NCBI RefSeq assembly: GCF_036321535.1 | Contig: NC_087472.1 | Span: 91,700,001-91,764,000, forward strand | Source of the DNA: Camelus dromedarius | Taxonomy: Eukaryota | Length of the DNA: 64,000 bases | Direction of reading: 5' to 3' | Shown: positions 11,343 through 45,773 of the stretch, piece by piece | Layout: the number at the start of each line of letters is the position of its first letter | How positions within the stretch are numbered: the stretch's first letter is position 1 | Position numbers and translations under genes: made by a program | The notes under the pieces: model-generated | Databases searched by the model: none | Told to the model about the DNA's origin: nothing | What the model saw: the letters and a program-made list of their open reading frames with translations, nothing else

Positions 11343-13109
11343 GAATAATTATTTCTGAGGCACAAACTTCTTGAAATTACATGACTTCATAACACTTCCT
11401 CTTTTAGGAAAGGGGAGCTTGCTGTATCCACCTGGTATTCATTAGAACAACTTCGAATGAGTAGGCTTACCAACATCATCACTCATCTCAAAAGCACTTG
11501 GTTTTAGAAACAGCACATGCCTGCTGTTGTGTACTTTCTCCGGTTTTATTAAGTAAACAATGTTAGCAGCCAATCATGGCTGATGGCTACATCATTGTAA
11601 GTATAGTCTACTGTGTGAGGATCATGAAAATCTGTACCACTACATTAGAGTCCCATTTACTTCATCAAAATCAGAATTTCTTTCTCATTTCCGTGTTTAA
11701 CTTAGTAGAACTGTTCTGCATTTTTATAAATGGGGGGGGGTGTATTATTGGCTTGGGTGAGATGCTGTCATAAAGTTAGTTAAGAAGGATTTTGCAGTTG
11801 GTGTTTTGTCTCCAGATAAACAAGTCCATCTTCTGAAACTTCATATCTAACTGGTTTAGATTTTTTCCCTTTGTTTCTCTTGCTGCTTCACAAACATTTC
11901 TGCAGTTCTAGGAACAATCAATTACAGTAGGACTTCCGGGTTTTCTGTTTTTGCTTCCACTAGGGAAAAGCTGATTAAGATTTCACAAAGCAGGTTCAAC
12001 ATTGATCTTCAAACTTTAATATAGTTACTTGCACCAATAAAAAAGTAAATGCAAAACAATTCTAACAACCATAAAATACTTTTGACACAGGAATTTTTTA
12101 TAAAGACATGGAGGCCCTAGTGTACAATACATATGCATGATAGTAATTACTGGGGGTGCTTAGTTCCAGTGTACAATGCTTTTACTGTAAGACCTAATCC
12201 CTCAATGATTATCCTTTAACTTCAATGTGATAATTAAATCGGGCAACAGATGATATGTGTTAAGTTAAGAAGGATGTTGGCTACCATTAGTGAGCAAACC
12301 AAACTGAACAACTGACGATAATTACACAAAATCTGACAAATAAAAGTAGTCATGTTTGATTTGATTCTTTAAAAACATCCAATCTTTAAAGCAATCTGCA
12401 GTAAATGCACAGAGAACCAAGGGATTATCAGTTCTCAACACACTGAGTCCCATCCAAGAGTTAGAAAGAACTCCACAGCACAATGTTTACATCCGTTGGG
12501 CCATGATCAGTAAATTGATGATGTAGGAAGTCATTTTATATTATCTTCTTTGAGATGGACTGCCAAGTCACAATTTCAAGGAATATTTTTTCCTGACAGT
12601 TGAAAAAAATAGAAGGGCGTTTTGCTCTGATTGTAGTTTGTTTTTGTTCTATTATGAGCTCCATTTTGCTGCAGTTCACTCATTATTAGTTTATGATGGA
12701 TGCTATTGTTCTGTTGCTGTATGTGCACACATTTTCAGCAAAGAGCAACTCATGGATACTAACCTGACAAAACAGATCTATTAGGGTATCATTTGTTATT
12801 TGTGAATGTCTACAGGATAGGAGATGAAGGATAGGATAAGAAAGACAGGAGAAGAAAGAACAGGTATATTCTGAAAGATACCAGTGCACTGCCTCATTAT
12901 ATCATTTATTAAAATAGATATGATACAGATTTATGTGAGGATCCTATTTGTAAGATATCTGGGGTATAGTTATTAACATATTGGGAAGTAATGTTTATTG
13001 AATGCAACGTCTGCTGAGCACTTTCATAAATCCCATTGGATTCAGTCCTAATGTTAAGCTTAGGAGGTAAATATTAACCTAATTTTAAAATGTTTTATAA
13101 AATAAAATA

Positions 13110-13650
13110 AAAATACAGGTAAACAACTACATTTTAATTGTACATGTCCATGATTTTCCATGAACTGAACACTGTGAAAGTAACAGCCAGATCAAGAAAC
13201 AGAATATGGTCAGCACTATAGAGACCACCCTCCTACTTCCTTTCCATCACAAATCCTTGCCCTTCAAGGAAACCAGCATTCTTATTTCTATTTTTTTTTA
13301 TTGAAATATAGTCAGTTCACCATATTGTGTCAATTTCTGGTGTATAGCATAATGTTTCGGTCATATAAATACATATGTGTTCCTTTCCATATTCTTTTTC
13401 ATTATAGGTTACTACAAGATACTGGATATAGTTGCCTGTGCTATACAGTACAAACTTGTTGCCTATTTCTAATAGTATGTTTTTGTTTCACCAGTTTTAG
13501 TATTTTACATTAAAAGAATCACAGAATAGGTACTTTTCTGTCTCCTTTCACTCGGCACCAGGTCTGTGAGATTTATTCATGAGACTGAGAGTAGTTGTAG
13601 ATAGTTCATTCTCATTGTTGTCAAGTTTTTTTATTGTATGACTATGGCAT
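13110..13650 (-). mobile_element. Old L1 3' fragment containing a short young L1 3' end (13291-13463)
   Basis: Poly-T then TTGAAATATAGTCAGTTCAC...CCTGTGCTATACAGTA, flanked by the direct repeat TATTTCTA (13283-13290 and 13464-13471). Confidence 0.7.
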
Positions 13651-15854
13651 GATTTAGAGCAAGTTTTCAATATAAGCCTAATTATGAAATCCACTACTCT
13701 ACACAGTTTAGTCTCTAATAATAGAAGAAATGTTACAGGCATAAAGCATTTTTTGGTTGTTACAGGTTGCTCCCTATATCGCATTTTCTAAAGCTTAATC
13801 CAATGTAGCAAGCAATGAACCAATACAACAATTAATCAATAAAAGACATACAGAAATATGGTTGGGTAGTGTTGAACTTTTAGGACAAATACTTTATATA
13901 ACCACAGTTACATTAAAAATGAGGAATTGCTACACAAAGATATAGCTCTTGTAACAGACTTTATATATATACATATACATATACATATATATAGAGAGAG
14001 AGGTAATATTTCCCAGTTACCACAATCCACTTCCAAGTCATTATCTACTTAGAGTAACTAAATTAACTGTTCCTCATTACTTGCATATGTAAAGCTATCT
14101 ATTAACTAGCTTATTAAATTAATAAAGCAATGAAAAGTGACCAATGACTCCATTCATTTAACAGTTAGATGGATTTTCATCAAACTATTTATTGTATACC
14201 TACTATATGCCAGGCACTTTACTAGATGGAGCTTCTTTCCCTTAGAAATAGGCCTGCTTGTATGTCACTCTCCTGAGGCCACCACATTCGAGAAGCTATG
14301 ATATGAATGTGAGGATACATAAAAGGCCCTAATTTCAACCATTCTAAGACAATGTTAGTGAGTGAAGTTAAACCGGCTTTGAGGGGGGCCATCTTACATG
14401 TGAAAATAATGAGTCTTACATAGACGCAATGCTTTATCCTGTGTGCCTGAAAAATAATAGACTGGTTTTCCCACTAATGAGAAGTTCAGCTATAGTATGT
14501 AAGTAGAGGAAAGATTTTCCAATAGGGTTATAAATTGGGCATGCAGCCCACCAAAAGGGGGATAATAGAGGATAAGGGGGGAAAAGTCAGAGTATCCATT
14601 GTCAATAATCTGCAACACGAGACTACAGCGGAGACTTGATTTGCCTATGTTGGGTGTATCAGGGTGTATTGGTACAACCAAGGGCCTTGTGAATATTTAT
14701 AATGGACTTTTTCCCAACTAGTGCAAATCTGAGTTAACAAGTATTTCCAGGATGTACTTCTCTTTCCTTTTATAAGCCTCAGCTCATCAATCTAATTCAT
14801 CCCATTCCAATTCAGTGAACATCAAATGAATGCCTTCTGTGAGCTAGGAGGTGTGTTAAGCACTGGGGATCCACACAGGAGAACCCTGCTGGAAGAATAT
14901 ATCTGCTGCTTTTATCGCATAGGATAATTATGAAAAACCATACAAACTAATATGTTTGAAAAAACTAGTATAAAATGTACATTTTTTTAAAGTTTGTTTG
15001 TTCTTATTTCTGCCTTTAGACTTTTTCAACTAGACATGCATCTGTTAAAAATATTCTATTTTTGGAGGATACATTCTATTTATGGTTTATGGGGAATCAA
15101 CTTCTCATAGTGAGGAAGATGTACAAACACAAATAAGCAGAGAATTCATTCCAAATAGTCAAGCCTCTTATTAGTAACTAGTCATTCTGTATCCATAATA
15201 TGGTATTAAAACATATGCCCCAACCAATCATAGGGTATACTTCTCTCTTTCTCTCCCCACCCACTTCCCACCTCTCTCCCTCTCTCCTCTAAAGTGTTTC
15301 TGTAGAGGAAATCCAGTTACAATGGGATCAAGGGAATGTATGAAAGAGGGAAAAATGTTACTAAAGGCAAAATTACAGCTGGGAAGAAGAGGAAAGTTAT
15401 GCAAATTTTCCCTTCGGTTGATGGACTAATTATAGGGAAATGAGCTTTGAATTTTTAAAAGCATTCCTTGAGAATGATGCTTTTTCTTTGTCTAGCACCA
15501 TCTGTTAATAGGTATCATTCATTCTAGACAATTAGTGGCTCTCACAAAACAGTGGTCTTTATTTAATGCAATCATGTACTAAGAATTAATAGAAGTACTA
15601 TTATTTCAAGGGATTTTTTGGGGGGGGGGGATGGAGAGGATTAGACTTCATTCTCCACAAGTGTATACCTGGAGTTAAAAGAGAGCACCAGTTTTTTCTT
15701 GCCTTACATTTGGGACTTATGCAGACCCTTTATTGGTGGGATGGTAGGATTTTAGTTCACAGGTTTCTTTACTCTGTAGCAGAAGACCATACATTCATAT
15801 ATACATCATGGACCATTGTCACTGCGTTAAAAGTACTTATAGGAGGGGTGAGAT

Positions 15855-16510
15855 TCTCATTCTGGTAATGGAGAAGTGGCTCTTATTGGACCAGCCTTTC
15901 CACAGAAAACAACTTAAAACCTTGGACATAATATAAAAATCTACCTAAAGTCAATGGAGAATAACTAAAATCATACGAATATTCAAGGAGAGTCTACACT
16001 TGGAAGTAGTGAATGGAATGGGGTAAGTTTCTCCTTTTACAGCTTTTGGCTGAGGGCAGGCTATAGTCAGTCCTAAGTGAGGTGGCTAAAACTGACAACT
16101 AGAAAGTAAGAGAGAAATAGTAAAAAGGAGAGATCCAGTAAAGGAACTCCAAATGTTGCATATAAACTCTAACTTGAACTATTGTTCAGCTGACCCCCGA
16201 ACCATGCATGTGCAAGGCAAAAGTACAAGCAATCCAGCTAGGGCAAAAATAACACCATAAAATTCACCTGCTGCTCACTAAGGGGGAGATGGAGTTTGGA
16301 TTTCAAGTCCAGCCAAGTCAACTGCCTACTAAAATTTTAAAAAAATCAATGCTCCTTGAAGTAACATAACAGACTCCAGAGTCTGAACATCCTATTTTTC
16401 ATAACGTCCAGGATACTAGACATGAACAGTCTAGTATTAGACCCAAACTGTAGAGTAAAGGCAATCAACACAAACTGACCACAAGACCAGATGTTGCACT
16501 TAGCAGAGAT
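15855..16510 (+). mobile_element. Old L1 5' region (5'UTR/pre-ORF1, L1M-type)
   Basis: TTCTGGTAATGG...CCTTTCCACAGAAAACAACTTAAAACCTTGGACATAATATA start, and GACCAGATGTTGCACTTAGCAGAGATTTTAA at the end, resembling recalled L1M/L1ME 5' sequences. Confidence 0.55.
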
Positions 16511-17244
16511 TTTAACTGATTCTCTTTATTATTTAAAATCTGATTTATTCATGGATTTGGATTCTCAAGCACTTTTGTTGTTGTCTCGCCTCCTGTACTC
16601 TCCATCCATTTTGCAGCTTCTTGGGAAAGCAGTTTTAGGTTTTCCTGAAGATGAGTGATTTTGTCCAAACCATACAGTATTTCCCTCTGAACTTGGCTGA
16701 CATTCTGCCGAGAAGCTTTTAAGATGTTTTTGGTCTCAGCAACTTGGAACTGGAGGGATTGTGAGGATTCTTTGAGTAACTGCACCTGTACTTGAAGGCT
16801 AGCCATTATCACCCCATGAAATAAAAGTTTAGAGATCTCACTTTTTTGTTCTTTTTTGAGAAAGTCCCTAGGCGAAGAGGTGAACCTGGTCATATCTTTA
16901 TGAAATGCTGCTAAACACAGAGTTTGTAACTTCAGAGAACCGGCTACCTCTGGAAGTGACTTGAAGGCTTCATAGGCTTGTGTAAACAGTCTAATCATCT
17001 GAATGAATTCATAATATTCTTGAACCTAGACAGAAAATCTTTTGGCTGCCTCTTTTTTCTTCTGTAAAGTATGTTGTCTCTTTATCATAAAAACAATCAT
17101 GGCAGCACATACCAGTATCTTCCAGGAAAACCTAAAGACACTTAGAGCTTGACTCAAATATCTGGAAAACACCACCAAAGTACCATATAAGTGCTCTAGA
17201 ACCAGCTGGAAACACATTTTTATGGCAATCAGCCCACCATCCAT
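16504..17244 (-). pseudogene. CTAGE5: cTAGE5/MIA2 (TANGO1-family) processed pseudogene or decayed retrogene; N-terminal TM plus first coiled-coil only
   Basis: ORFs 17026-17298 and 16549-16998 are in the same frame, separated by one TAG. From the Kozak ATG (gagccATGG, 17244) the translation MDGG..LVLEHL..FSWKILVCAAMIVF..FSV*VQEYYEFIQMIRLFTQAYE..SQSLQFQVAETK..LQENLKLLSQEAAKWME..ENPNP*INQILNNKENQLKSL aligns colinearly with recalled human cTAGE5 (MEEP..LLLEEL..FPWELVICAAVVGF..SKSLKSQVAEAK..LQESQKQLLQEAEVWKE..AEQVLNDKESHIKTL). No introns. Confidence 0.88.
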
Positions 17245-20200
17245 GGCTCCAAAGGGCACTGCCGTTCTGCCTTTGATTGCCAGTATCCTGTGAGCCACAA
17301 CCCACCACAGAGACTCTTGGGGAATGTTCCGATTCTAACCCACACAAGTGCCTGGCAACAAGGACAGGGTATTGGTGGGGCTGGCAGAAGGAGAGGCCAG
17401 CTAGGTTCTGTAAAAGAGTATCCCAATTTTGCTCTGCTCCCCACTCAAAGAGAGAGTGGCATTAGCTGTACAGTGCATCAGGCATTTGGAGAAGTGGAAA
17501 GGGCTGGTGGCAGCCAGCCAGAGGAGGCCAACCAGTGAGTTCTGACCACACCAGGCTGTCTGGTCTTACAATAAACCAGAGTCAAATCAGTCCCAGGCGC
17601 AAACACCTTTGAGCATGTCAGGGCATAATGGTGATGCATGCTGTAGTAGAGGACGCATGTGCCCACATCTTTGGGTGGGGCTCATTCTCCTGATTAAAAG
17701 TTTCCTTTTACAACATGGGAGCCTAATCTTGCTTAGTTTCACCAAAGGTAGTAACTAAGAGACCTGGTTTTCAATTGTAAGGATTTGGGAAAATCAACTG
17801 AAACTGGCAATGTCTTAAAATTTCAAGAATTTTTTGTGGATCCAGTTTTTTTCCTGTGCAATTCCAGTCTCCTGGAAGAGGATGACTCTCTTTTAGTGCT
17901 GACTCAGTGATCCAGGCTACTTCCCTCATGTGGCCCTGCTATCTCCAGCACGAGCCACCCAAGGTTGACCTGGAGACAGTTTCCCATCCACTCAGTCATC
18001 TTCAGAAATGTGGTGATTCTTCTAGCTGAAATTGTCATCTTTTTTTTTTTTTAAACGACTTCTCACTCTCCTAGTATTTTTCTGGCAGAGTGAGACTGAG
18101 AGTCTCTTTGTCCAACATTCAGGCTTACCACGAGTGACTCACCCTCAACACTTTTATTTTTATTATTATTTTTTCATTCCCAATACTTTTACCATGAGAA
18201 AATGGTAGGTCTGTCAGCCAAATCCCATCTGGGGGTCTTAGAGGGTGCCGGGGTTTGGGTTGCAGGTCCCCTTGTGGATGTGGAGAATAGAGACACTGGT
18301 CAAGGGAGGAGGTGCCCAAATGCCTGATGAAGTGATTTTTTGAAAAACTGAGATAATATTGGTTTACAAATTCCATGTGTACAACATTACATTTGAGAAT
18401 CTGAGGCACTCATAGGACTACAGCCACCAGCAGAAGCCACAGGATTTACCCAAGGATTCAACTGCCACCACTACCATGTCCACATCTATTCCCTGGAATG
18501 GGCTATGCCAAGGGAGCTCTAGAGTGGCTGCCTATGCAGTGACATCTCAGCCTAGAATCTATTGGCTCAGTAAGGCAGAAGCAGTGGCTCTGTGGAACAG
18601 CGAGGGATTTGAGGCCATCTCTGGTGTCAGCAAGTGTGAGGTGACCTTGGCACACATCTGTGGATTGCTTATCCGTGTACCTGTGACAGGCTGATGTGAT
18701 TCTGTGGTCAGGGACAGACAGTGGCACACATAGAAAGTCCAAAGTATAACAAGTGTGGTGCACTGATAGGACAGTGGAATAAGCAGCCTGATGGGGCAGA
18801 GGTTACTAACATGTCAGTGTAAGCCACTGCAGCCAGCCCATGGGCTTGCCCTTGGAGATAAGAACAACCACGTAGATGTAAATCAGCTCACTGACCTGGC
18901 CATATCCTCCAAACCACTGATTTCAGCATCTATCAGGCACCTGATCACATCTGTGTTCAATAGAAATCTGTTATATTTTCAGTGAAGATTTAAAGAGGGT
19001 CTTTGACAATCCAGTGTTTAAGACAGTGCCTGGCAAATGGTAGGCACCAAGTATCTGTGAAGTGACTAAACAAATACTCCAGGGAATGAATGCTCTGTCA
19101 GAGTAAAGAGATAATAATGAGGACAGTAATGGAATTAGCATTTATCGGGTGCTTACTCTGTGCCGAGCACTGAGCTAAACAATTACATGAATTACCTTAT
19201 TTAATTTTCCCAATGCAGTTGTGAGCCAGGTTCTATGATTGTCCCCATTTAACATATGAGGAACATGAGGCACAGAAAGCTTCAAGAGATGTATAATATG
19301 TACTTTATGCATACTTTTGGCTACTTAAGTAATAATCAAGGAGCATAAATTCTAATCACTGCTTCAAGAATCATGCGTGCCTGGGCACACACCCAAAAAT
19401 GGGACTTCCCAGATAACCATTCCATAATTAAGATTGGAATCCCCTAAAATTGTGTACAGTAACTGAGACTGGAACACTTATGAAGAAACTGCATGAACCC
19501 ACACACGATAAACCAGAGGACAAATTCTTATAATATAGAAGAGCTGAGAGCTCTGGGGGATGGTGGGATGCTAGTGGGGTGCAGGAATTTTTTTTTAAAA
19601 CGCCACTAGAAACTCCCATAAAAAATACTTTTGAAGCAGAAATGAAATGACACTTCCCGACAAAGGGACTGGAAAAGAACATAAACCAAACGGCTGAGTC
19701 ACACACTGCAAATTCCAGCTGCAGCTCTGAATCAAAAGGTACATAAACCAAAGAAATGTTGGGAAAATACAGGTCTTTTCTGTCACATCCAATGGCAACT
19801 TCAATCAGTAGGCATGTCACAATTAGCCACGGAATCGAGTATAGAAGGTTGAGTTGTTGCTAAGTGAGCACCCCAAGGTCCTTATGGGCACATTTTAGAA
19901 ACAGAATGCTAAAGAGATGAAAACTGGCTTGGTGATAAGGAAGAGAATGGAGACCTAGATTTACTTATTTGACTTGAGTGATCTGTTCTATCAGAGATGA
20001 TAGATTTATACACTTGCATGGGAATCGACAACTGAAACTTCCTGCAATAATAAGTGTGACTTCAGTATATATTTTTGCCTTTCATACGGAAAAGGCTTTG
20101 AAGGGCAGTGCAGTACAAATGAGAGGTATCTTTATTCAAGCTTCGTCCAGTGCATTTATAGACTATTCGGCACTTGCTCTCACACTAACCTGAGACAATT

Positions 20201-31831: not shown

Positions 31832-33070
31832 CACAATAAACCTCCTAGAAGAAAACATAGGCAAAACATTATCTGACATACATCTCAAAAATGTTCTCCT
31901 AGGGCAGTCTACCCAAGCAACAGAAAAGCAAGAATAAACAAATGGGACCTAATTAAACTTACAAGCTTCTGCACAGCAGAGGAAACCATAAGTAAAACAA
32001 AATGACAACCTATGGAATGGGAGAAAAATTTTTGCAAACAATGAAACCGACAAAGGCTTGATCTCCAGAATATATAAGCAGCTCATATGACATAATAAGA
32101 ACAAAACAAACAACCCAATCCAAGAATGGGCAGAAGACCTAAATAAGCAATTCTCCAAGGAAGACTTACAAATGATCAATAGGCACATGAAAAAATGCTC
32201 AACATCACTAATTATCAGAGAAATGCAAATCAAAACTACAGTGAGGTATCACCTCACACCAGCCAGAATGGCCATCATTCAAAAGCCCACAAATGACAAA
32301 TGCTGGAGAGCCTGTGGAGAAAAGGGAACCCTCCTACACTGCTGGTGGGAATGCAGGTTGGTGCAGCCACTGTGGAAAACAGTATGGAGATTCCTCAAAA
32401 GACTAGGAACAGACTTACCAAATGACCCAGGAATTCCACTCCTGGGCATATATCCAGAAGGAACTCTACTTCAGGATGACACCTGCACCCCAATGTTCAT
32501 AGCAGCACTATTTACAATAGCCAAGACATGGAAACAACCTAAATGTCCATCAACAGATGACTGGATAAAGAAGAGGTGGTATATTTATACAATGGAATAC
32601 TATTCAGCCATAAAAATGACAACACAATGCCATTTGCAGCAACATGGATGTCCCAGGGGAATGTCATTCTAAGTGAAGTAAGCCAGAAAGGGGAAGAAAA
32701 ATACCATATGAGATTGCTCATATGTAAAATCTAAAAAAAAAAAAAAGAACATAAATACAAAACAGAAACAGATTCATAGACATAGAATACAAACTTGTGG
32801 TTGCCAAGGGGGCGTGGGGAGGGAAGGGACAGATGGGGATTTCAAAATCCATAGATACTAACAGGCATATGCAGAATAGATAAACAAGATTATACTGTAT
32901 AGCACAGGGAAATATATACAAGATCTTGTGGTAGCTGACAGCAAAAAAGAATGTGACAATGAATATATGTATGTTCATGCATAACTGAAAAATTGTGCTC
33001 TACACTGGAAATTGACACAGCATTGTAAACTGACTATAAAGCAATAAAAAATGTTAAAAAAAATAAAGTT
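31832..33070 (+). mobile_element. 5'-truncated young L1 nested in an older minus-strand L1 3' end (about 31670-33235)
   Basis: 166-aa ORF2 C-terminal remnant (32172-32672, [19 protein letters not shown]ys-rich motif). Exact 14-bp TSD AAATATGTAATACA at 31818-31831 and 33071-33084. Confidence 0.93.
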
Positions 33071-43763: not shown

Positions 43764-45773
43764 TTTTAAGATTTTTTAATTGAGTTATAGTCATTTTTAC
43801 AATGTTGTGTCAAATTCCACTGTAGACCACAATTTCTCAGTTATACATGAACATACATATATTCATTGTCACATTTTTTTTCGCTGTGAGCTACCACAAG
43901 ATCTTGTATATATTTCCCTGTGCTATACAGTATAATCTTGTTTATCTATTCTGCATATGCCTGTCAGTATCTACAAATTTTGAAATCGCAGTCTGTCCCT
44001 TCCCACCCCCCACCCCCTTGGCAACCACAACTTTGTATTCTATGTCTATGAGTCTGTTTCTGTTTTGTATTTATGTTCTTTTTTTTTTTTTTAATATTCC
44101 ACACATGAGCGATCTCATATGGTATTTTGCTTTCTCTCTCTGGCTTACTTCACTTAGAATGACATTCTCCAGGGACATCCATGTTGCTGCAAATGGTGTT
44201 ATGTTGTCGTTTTTTATGGCTGAACAGTATTCCATTGTATGAATATACCAGTGCTTCTTTATCCAGTCATCTGTTGATGGACATTTAGGCTGTTTCCATG
44301 TCTTGGCTATTGTAAATAGTGCTGCTATGAACACTGGAGTGCAGGTGTCTTTCTGAGTAGGGTTCCTTCGGGATGTATGCCCAGGAGTGGGATTCCTGGG
44401 TCATATGGTAAGTCTATTCCTAGTGTTTTGAGGAATCTCCATACTGTTTTCCACAGTGGCTGCACCAAACTGCATTCCCACCAGCAGTGTAGGAGGGTTC
44501 CCTTTTCTCCACAGGCTCTCCAGCATTTGTCATTTGTGGGCTTTTGAATGATGGCCATTCTCACTGGTGTGAGGTGATACATCACTGTAATTTTGATTTG
44601 CATTTCTCTGATAATTAGTGATATTGAGCATTTTGATATTGCTGATATTGATCATTTGTATGTCTTCCTTGGAAAACTGCTTGTTTAGGTTTTTTGCCCT
44701 TTTTTTCATTTGGGTTGTTCATTTTTTTCTTATTAAGTCTTATGAGCTGCTTATATATTCTGGAGGTCAAGCCTTTGTCAGTTTCATCATTTGCAAAAAT
44801 TTTCTCCCATTCCGTAGGTTGTCATTTTGTTTTACTTATGGTTTCCTTTGCTGTGCAGAAGCTTGTAAGTTTAATTAGGTCCCATTTGTTTATTCTTGCT
44901 TTTATTTCTATTGCTTGAGTAGACTGTTCTAGGAGAACATTTTTGAGATCTATGTCAGATAATGTTTTGCCTATATTTTCTTCTAGGAGGTTTATTGTAT
45001 CTTGTCTTATGTTTAAGTCTTTGATCCATTTTGAGTTTATTTTTGTGTACGGTGTAAGGGAATGTTCTAGCTTCATTGCTTTACATGCTGCTGTCCAGTT
45101 TTCCCAACTCCATTTGCTGAAGAGACTGTCTTTATTCCATTGTATCTTCTTGCCTCCTTTGTCGAAGATGAGTTGACCAAAAGTTTGTGGGTTCATTTCT
45201 GGGCTCTCTGTTCTGTTCCATTGGTCTATATGTCTGTTTTGGTACCAATACCATGCTGTCTTGATGACTGCAGCTCTATAGTATTGTCTGAAGTCTGGGA
45301 GAGTTATTCCTCCAGCCTCTTTCTTTCTCTTCAGTAATGCTTTGGCAATTCTAGGTCTTTGATGGTTCCATATAAATTTTATTATGATTTGTTCTACTTC
45401 TGTGAAATATGTCATGGGTAATTTGATAGGGATTGCATTAAATCTGTAGATTGCCTTGGGCAGTGTGACCATTTTAATATATTGATTCTTCCAATCCAGC
45501 AACATGGGATATCTTTCCATTTTTTTAAGTCTTCTTTAATTCCCTTAAGCAGTGTTTTATAGTTCTCTGTGTATAAGTCTTTCACCTCCTTGATTAGATT
45601 TATTCCTAGGTATTTTATTACTTTGGGTGCTATTTTAAAGGGGATTGTTTGTTTCTTTACTTTCTTTTCCTGTTGATTCATCATTAGTGTAAAGAAATGC
45701 AACTGATTTTTGAACATTAATCTTGTAACTTGCTGAATTCTTCTATTACTTCTAGTAGTTTTTGTTTGGACCT
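43764..45773 (-). mobile_element. 5'-truncated young L1 (about 2 kb; disrupted ORF2 C-terminal region), nested in an old L1 (about 43480-46330)
   Basis: ORF 44822-45520 ([41 protein letters not shown]) and adjacent frameshifted ORF2 pieces. Approximate TSD ..TATCTTTT on both sides. Confidence 0.95.

Follow-up and report, generated by a model that had tools for sequence, protein, structure and literature searches.

The 64,000-nucleotide stretch of the Camelus dromedarius genome analysed here (contig NC_087472.1, positions 91,700,001 to 91,764,000; hereafter the window, at 91.70-91.76 Mb of contig C37 in the 2.3-Gb genome) contains a minus-strand reading frame that resembles MIA2/cTAGE5, the partner of TANGO1 at endoplasmic reticulum (ER) exit sites. 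The question raised by this locus is whether the frame is a working gene, a gene that was lost or a copy that never worked. It runs from 17244 to 16504, comprises 247 codons starting with an ATG (context gagccATGG), and is interrupted by just two in-frame stops: a TAG at codon 73 (17026-17028) and a TGA at codon 232 (16549-16551). An earlier interpretation made from the letters alone (the sequence-only reading) described it as a frameshift-free retrocopy with a long translated past, either recently inactivated or polymorphic. With a probability of roughly three in four, we conclude that it is the dromedary copy of an old, intronless, short (about 225-254 amino acids, aa) gene derived from MIA2/cTAGE5 that has been disabled here, i.e. 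a lineage-specific pseudogene.

Results

A frame derived from a spliced MIA2 transcript

Retranslation reproduced the frame, its start context and both stops as they had first been read. The other five frames over the same 741 bases (39% G+C) carried 13-20 stops, and mononucleotide shuffles gave a mean of 17.1 stops (standard deviation 3.8), with none in 5000 reaching two or fewer. The low-stop frame is real and not due to chance.

Homologues were identified with an exhaustive HMMER search over 1.84 billion protein representatives, which gave 86 matches at E ≤ 1e-3, 24 at ≤ 1e-10 and 5 at ≤ 1e-30. The long matches were named MIA2 proteins (P0042 from the turtle Mauremys mutica, P0046 from the bat Rhynchonycteris naso and P0053 from the lizard Hemicordylus capensis), and the named MIA2 proteins aligned from query residue 24 or 35 to residue 247 with E values of 2e-9 to 3e-8 in this library search. 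In a pairwise comparison with bat MIA2 residues 594-858 the window frame was 27% identical over 270 columns (E 3e-19). The bat protein aligned in a single frame over 17223-16504, past both stops, and recovered the window at E 1.4e-11 when used to search the dromedary genome. The MIA2/cTAGE5 identity and the continuation of MIA2-like sequence beyond the stops, both claimed from the letters alone, were confirmed by these matches. Pfam searches with the read-through translation, its paralogues and the intact relatives gave sub-threshold coiled-coil noise only, a sequence search of the PDB returned a single chance-level match (E 0.22), and the best ESM Atlas scores (0.79-0.83, to a 'hypothetical protein' cluster and two TANGO1-named clusters) were below the meaningful level. 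Longer homologues of the window protein escaped a word-indexed search and came to light in the later exhaustive search.

The span aligned to MIA2 comprised the hydrophobic N-terminus, the membrane segment and most of coil1, the putative coil1 part being residues ~60-247, which align to bat MIA2 660-858. Coil1 of cTAGE5 (61-300) is described as binding Sec12 (PMC4164946), while coil2 is described as binding TANGO1 and the proline-rich domain (651-804) as binding Sec23/24 (PMC3128532). Within window positions 13001-20000, at E ≤ 1, nothing similar to coil2 was detected past MIA2 residue ~858-860, and tblastn with 13 family proteins showed no further family similarity beyond 16492..17308. The Pro-rich C-terminal domain was absent from the same positions and from the intact relatives of 225-254 aa. 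The description as a cTAGE5 retrocopy is thus correct in family and in the lack of introns but not in extent, since only the part from the transmembrane segment to coil1 is represented, without coil2 or the Pro-rich tail.

The dromedary has its own multi-exon MIA2 gene at C5:43.52-43.60 Mb. Residues 602-856 of this gene were found as seven separate pieces over 43549275-43565505 (16 kb, at least seven exons), and the same span was contiguous in the window over about 720 bases. The copy therefore descends from a spliced transcript, and the intronless retrocopy that had been proposed is borne out on this point. At the 3' side, a relic of the ancestral coding sequence crosses the position of the parent's next exon junction by a few codons. 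The copy is truncated near 16492 and an old repeat follows, so that its original 3' end has been lost.

A clade of short proteins in other mammals

The relative most similar to the window protein was P0014, with 72% identity, whose cluster includes a Sousa chinensis entry. It was followed by P0017 (63%), P0125 and P0013 (57-60%), P0015 and P0016 (44-45%), and the bat proteins P0021 (Pipistrellus kuhlii A0A7J7V675), P0126 and P0127 (37-40%). We constructed a maximum-likelihood tree from 29 rows and 253 of 399 columns, with the long proteins trimmed to the homologous part, the window row cut at residue 216 and two reptile MIA2 rows as outgroup. The window was placed in a 12-row clade consisting of short proteins only, with 99% support in the Shimodaira-Hasegawa-like approximate likelihood ratio test (SH-aLRT), apart from the dromedary's own copies on C18, C2 and C14. 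Its end branch was 0.18 and not elongated. The two named members of this clade are bat and dolphin.

Full-length open frames of 225-254 aa were present in seven members of the clade (P0013, P0125, P0015, P0016, P0021, P0126 and P0127), with pairwise identities of 35-68%. The four non-ruminant-like open frames share the end ...CVKIQ/E-x-x-E-stop, and the 140-aa fragment P0017 ends with ...SMKIQVYE-stop; the stop comes a few codons sooner in P0125, and sooner again in P0013. As clade relatives keep open frames of this length, the suggested long spell as an open, translated retrogene is supported as probable. One member of the P0013 cluster, P0098, is filed at NCBI as an Anaplasma phagocytophilum hypothetical protein and occurs on at least 1000 contigs, most likely as host DNA in bacterial or metagenome assemblies. 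Single-protein scans of metagenome contigs and prokaryote genome contigs for DNA of the relatives found nothing.

One nonsense codon and one frame change

At codon 73, 10 of the 11 other rows of the alignment (A1) cover the column, with Gln in seven, Arg in two and Lys in one. Because seven of these ten close relatives have Gln, a change from CAG to TAG is simpler than one from TTG. The sequence-only reading had aligned this stop to a Leu and proposed TTG>TAG; the Leu is indeed found in the parent-type protein, bat MIA2, but the path through TTG is not favoured by the close relatives. The TAG was also considered as a new splice acceptor (ttttctgtctag/G), and this candidate was dropped, as the relatives read straight through with Gln.

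The last 24 residues of eight clade relatives, namely the seven full-length frames and P0017, were scored against the three window frames with 500 shuffles. The +1 frame was best for seven of the eight tails, with scores of 36-47 that were attained by 0-2 of the 500 shuffles, compared with 12-27 for the originally read frame. The tail of P0013, with its earlier end, matched none of the three frames. The tblastn alignments of P0013, P0125, P0016, P0126, P0127 and P0021 all halted at 16600. Judged against the clade relatives, there is at least one frame-changing indel near 16597-16602, some 20 codons ahead of the family's natural stop, and a loss of two bases in the GAGAG run at these positions would be its simplest, presumed cause.

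The TGA at codon 232 sits two bases from the family's natural TAA. Because the relatives' tail and stop lie in the +1 frame, this TGA is a by-product of the frame shift, the first stop met in the shifted frame, and not the separate interruption that it had been taken for. MIA2 and the long paralogues P0128, P0024 and P0026 aligned in a single frame through to 16492-16504, and the DNA alignment with the parent exon had a net 3-base gap; the originally read frame is therefore the ancestral MIA2 frame on both sides, with the tail using another frame between. The statement that every indel is in frame accordingly holds against the distant parent and the long paralogues but fails against the clade relatives, and 'frameshift-free' has to be abandoned, given one frame change relative to the nearest relatives. 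Few stops and 'no frameshifts' had been judged against a distant parent, and it was the nearest relatives that revealed the hidden frame change.

Weighing neutral decay against loss of a constrained gene

The locus might instead be an ordinary dead processed pseudogene of MIA2/cTAGE5, neutral since its insertion, with the open frames of other species as chance survivors. The high divergence from the nearest full-length relatives (58-60% identity), the fragmentary or broken state of several relatives, the lack of a Pfam family and annotations that say just 'uncharacterized' or 'hypothetical' are in line with this. Two stops are nevertheless far from the 13-20 of the other frames and from anything in the 5000 shuffles, and dead family copies in the same genome (L003 and L004) carry seven and nine stops over 186 and 169 aligned columns, together with second-frame pieces. 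As 99 of the 1935 single-base changes possible in codons 1-216 make a stop (5.1%), neutral divergence of this degree should have closed the frames; seven of full length, 35-68% identical to one another, are open, and the four non-ruminant-like ones share one end. Neutral decay since before the bat-ungulate split would be difficult to reconcile with seven frames that are still open at 32-65% difference from one another, and we consider it unlikely.

The same rate can be applied to the window copy. In rough figures, an end branch of 0.18 per residue amounts to some 39 replacements. If all changes were neutral, these would go with 50-55 base changes, for which about three stops and a few frameshifts are predicted. 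One nonsense codon and one frame change are below this prediction, though weakly so, and the loss can be dated anywhere on the camelid branch. The 'recent' disablement that had been proposed is therefore not established.

Several points weigh against our preferred interpretation of a disabled short gene. Orthology of the window copy with the short proteins is deduced from the tree and from the lack of a closer paralogue in the dromedary genome. P0014, P0017, P0018, P0019 and P0023 are fragments, and the dolphin-like copy looks broken: P0113 has a frame change near the membrane segment, and both P0113 and P0014 end early after ...QKNVN. This breakage suggests repeated loss, and the short gene may be dispensable in general. 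Most close relatives come from short contigs and the libraries take open frames only, which biases towards intact copies. By our own estimate, the 58-60% identity to P0013 and P0125 is about what neutral drift would give, so that purifying selection is weak at best. The ~60 bases around the tail allow more than one alignment to the parent exon, which leaves the number and kind of the apparent indels unsettled. Finally, contigs of sequencing runs (see below) show presence only, and fixation of the lesions is not established by them.

A disabled short gene remains our preferred explanation. As in a unitary pseudogene, there are intact clade relatives (the seven open frames), there are lesions, and the dromedary genome has no intact copy of the same clade.

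Presence of the lesions in sequencing runs

A gene that still works in the dromedary, with the assembly showing a null allele, a sequencing error or a read-through stop, would account for the small number of lesions (two) and for the intact ATG context and membrane segment. Contigs of sequencing runs were examined for 108 sampled 31-letter words of window positions 16350-17450. All 16 runs in which the stretch is well represented contained every word (1.00 of 108); the contigs show presence and are compatible with a second allele. These runs carry two organism labels (A and B) and come from samples S1-S12 and studies P1-P6, and four carry no flag as a possible assembly source. An assembly slip is therefore disfavoured, and a widespread allele under two species labels is favoured. 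Two separate lesions on one haplotype also speak against a working gene, as does, as weak evidence, the absence of any protein of this locus at ≥90% identity from the protein libraries. We find a still-working gene improbable, more so than neutral decay, and the polymorphism suggested by the sequence-only reading gains no support from the 16 runs.

Other family copies in the dromedary genome

The window protein matched 19 places in the dromedary genome, itself included. The best other match, at C18:7508744-7509301, was 38% identical and belongs to another clade. This paralogue (L002, C18:7.51 Mb) is split over two frames, with open reading frames of 236 and 218 aa, and its outside relative P0128 is one 314-aa frame; L002 may be another disabled family member. 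Several family copies in this genome were nearly identical to each other, and L005 and L006 (C2:105.18-105.19 Mb) form an inverted pair of copies ~7 kb apart with identical scores. Although many such copies are lineage-specific, it is highly improbable that the locus is a young retrocopy, specific to camelids and very rapidly diverged, of cTAGE5 or some other member of the family, since the window protein is nearer to proteins of the dolphin cluster, of ruminant-like type and of bats (37-72%) than to the dromedary's own copies (≤38%) or its own parent, and nests in a clade of outside proteins with 99% support.

Three intact intronless genes of 503-528 aa (L009-L011) were located within 0.7 Mb at C2:116.05-116.76 Mb. 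An entry named 'CTAGE family, member 5-like protein [Camelus ferus]' matches them at 96% identity, and 'cTAGE family member 15-like [Hippopotamus]' does so at 58%. A search with bat MIA2 detected seven further dispersed loci (L026-L032; C17:38.16, C18:45.99 and 28.47, C20:29.70, C8:16.47 and 38.01, and C4:11.16 Mb), whose frames from ATG to stop span 174-245 aa (≥209 aa in six of the seven) and contain '...MEGLLSSVELGFGLILR...'. These were 31-33% identical to bat MIA2 residues ~617-779 and formed a long-branched clade of their own in the tree; Pfam assigned no family to the one member submitted. They look like a second short subfamily, derived from the cTAGE5 N-terminus and amplified in the dromedary genome. 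Together with the 19 places matched by the window protein, this supports the non-primate cTAGE expansion that had been put forward as a possibility.

Features of the locus and its surroundings

The coordinates of the features are collected in Table 1. Upstream of the ATG, the in-frame stretch 17298-17245 is coding in P0013 and P0125, and the window has GTG where their start ATG falls. Across the 5' region and the gene start, a 109-aa open stretch lies in an alternative frame (17132-17461, minus strand). In the C18-type relatives P0128 and P0022, the '...GSQDTGNQRQ...' motif of this stretch is read in the frame of the main open reading frame, and in P0113 the frame of this stretch is fused to the main frame; the upstream region may therefore once have been coding.

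Table 1. Features of the MIA2/cTAGE5-derived copy and of its immediate surroundings, in window positions.
Feature	Position	Strand	Details
5' region common to other family copies	17250..17418	-	74% DNA identity to C22:31300303-31300468
Family-similar stretch (MIA2/cTAGE5, protein level)	16492..17308	-	tblastn, 13 family proteins against window 13001-20000
Start ATG	17242..17244	-	gagccATGG; aligned to the Met of the relatives' conserved G-A-M-D/E motif
Hydrophobic segment, residues 36-54	17083..17139	-	Homologous to the MIA2/cTAGE5 transmembrane segment; Kyte-Doolittle 19-residue mean 2.01; bat MIA2 alignment
Premature TAG, codon 73	17026..17028	-	Most simply CAG>TAG; product left is 72 aa, membrane segment without coiled coil
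Frame-change site, approximate	16597..16602	-	After ...QEAAKWME; from tblastn ends, three-frame translation and tail scores
Conserved C-terminal tail of the short gene and natural stop TAA (16545-16547)	16545..16604	-	+1 frame: WRVQEARQQQKCLRIQIHE-stop; ends ...RIQIHE-stop
TGA, codon 232	16549..16551	-	Earliest stop of the shifted frame, no independent lesion
Relic of ancestral MIA2 coil1 coding past the short gene's stop	16492..16548	-	INQILNNKENQLKSL...; aligned to bat MIA2 ...KQILCDKENQIKSL
Old interspersed repeat	16243..16417	.	Just past the end of family similarity; 69-75% identity to five other genome places (lower bound)

Elsewhere in the window, two open stretches of 193 and 237 aa (32091-32672, plus strand, and 44822-45535, minus strand) were assigned to no family by Pfam; we take them to resemble fragments of LINE-1 ORF2. 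Contig C37 is at least 97.6 Mb long, compared with 40-49 Mb for contigs 17-20. This size fits a sex chromosome listed after the autosomes, and the locus may thus be X-linked and cancer/testis-like.

Discussion

The family originated from a retroposed MIA2/cTAGE5 transcript, and the branch leading to the window copy kept only the N-terminal hydrophobic and transmembrane part and most of coil1. We propose that the window copy is orthologous to the short proteins of its clade, which would make the gene older than the split of bats and even-toed ungulates. The short gene would have changed rapidly while selection maintained its open frame, until constraint was lost somewhere on the camelid branch. 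Any transcript would now encode a membrane stub of at most 72 aa without coiled coil, and the short gene would therefore no longer work in the dromedary. The intact product in other species is predicted to be an ER-membrane-anchored coil1 module, without the TANGO1-binding coil2 or the Sec23/24-binding Pro-rich tail. Since coil1 binds Sec12 and the other two parts are missing, such a product could be a modulator or decoy at ER exit sites.

The locus thus probably reflects the ordinary loss of an uncharacterised gene in one lineage, as opposed to a fresh retrocopy. It is itself a routine pseudogene, and its value is as a pointer to large, independent non-primate expansions of cTAGE5/MIA2 retrogenes. 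More tentatively, and with considerably less confidence than for the loss itself, we suggest that Laurasiatheria carry an undescribed, fast-evolving intronless gene (possibly sex-linked) that consists of a transmembrane anchor and coil1 only, has been open since before the bat-ungulate split and was repeatedly lost, in the dromedary and apparently in dolphins. If this is true, nature would have supplied a 'coil1-only' protein that modulates the cTAGE5-Sec12 module at ER exit sites or serves as a decoy for it, perhaps confined to the germline as the primate CTAGE genes are, and expansions of the CTAGE type would not be primate-specific. The short form with a membrane segment and coil1, open in several lineages, serves as a naturally truncated test case for the Sec12-binding module of cTAGE5.

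Among known systems, MIA2/cTAGE5 itself shares with the window copy the N-terminal hydrophobic stretch, the transmembrane segment and most of coil1, whereas the window copy is intronless, very diverged and disabled, and is without coil2 and the Pro-rich tail. The intronless genes of Camelus and Hippopotamus annotated as 'CTAGE family member 5-like', 'cTAGE family member 15-like' or 'MIA2' belong to the same family; the C2 copies, which correspond to the Camelus CTAGE5-like protein, differ in that they keep coil2 and the Pro-rich end, are 27% identical to the window copy and fall in a different clade. Closest are the Pipistrellus kuhlii protein A0A7J7V675 and the unnamed relatives P0013, P0125, P0015, P0016, P0126 and P0127, which have the clade, the start motif, the membrane segment and the C-terminal tail in common with the window copy but are open from start to stop, in contrast to its nonsense codon and frame change.

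The primate CTAGE family is described as a primate-specific expansion that began with retroposition in the ancestor of Haplorhini and continued through DNA duplications, under positive selection (PMC4949931). Among the papers listed by our literature search on CTAGE retrogenes and retroposition, none dealt with non-primate CTAGE expansions. Like the window copy, the primate CTAGE retrogenes, which are described as cancer/testis antigens, are intronless, derived from MIA2/cTAGE5 and part of a fast-evolving multi-copy family. In contrast to them, the clade of the window copy is laurasiatherian (bat, dolphin cluster and dromedary), encodes proteins of only about 225-254 aa and forms an independent branch.

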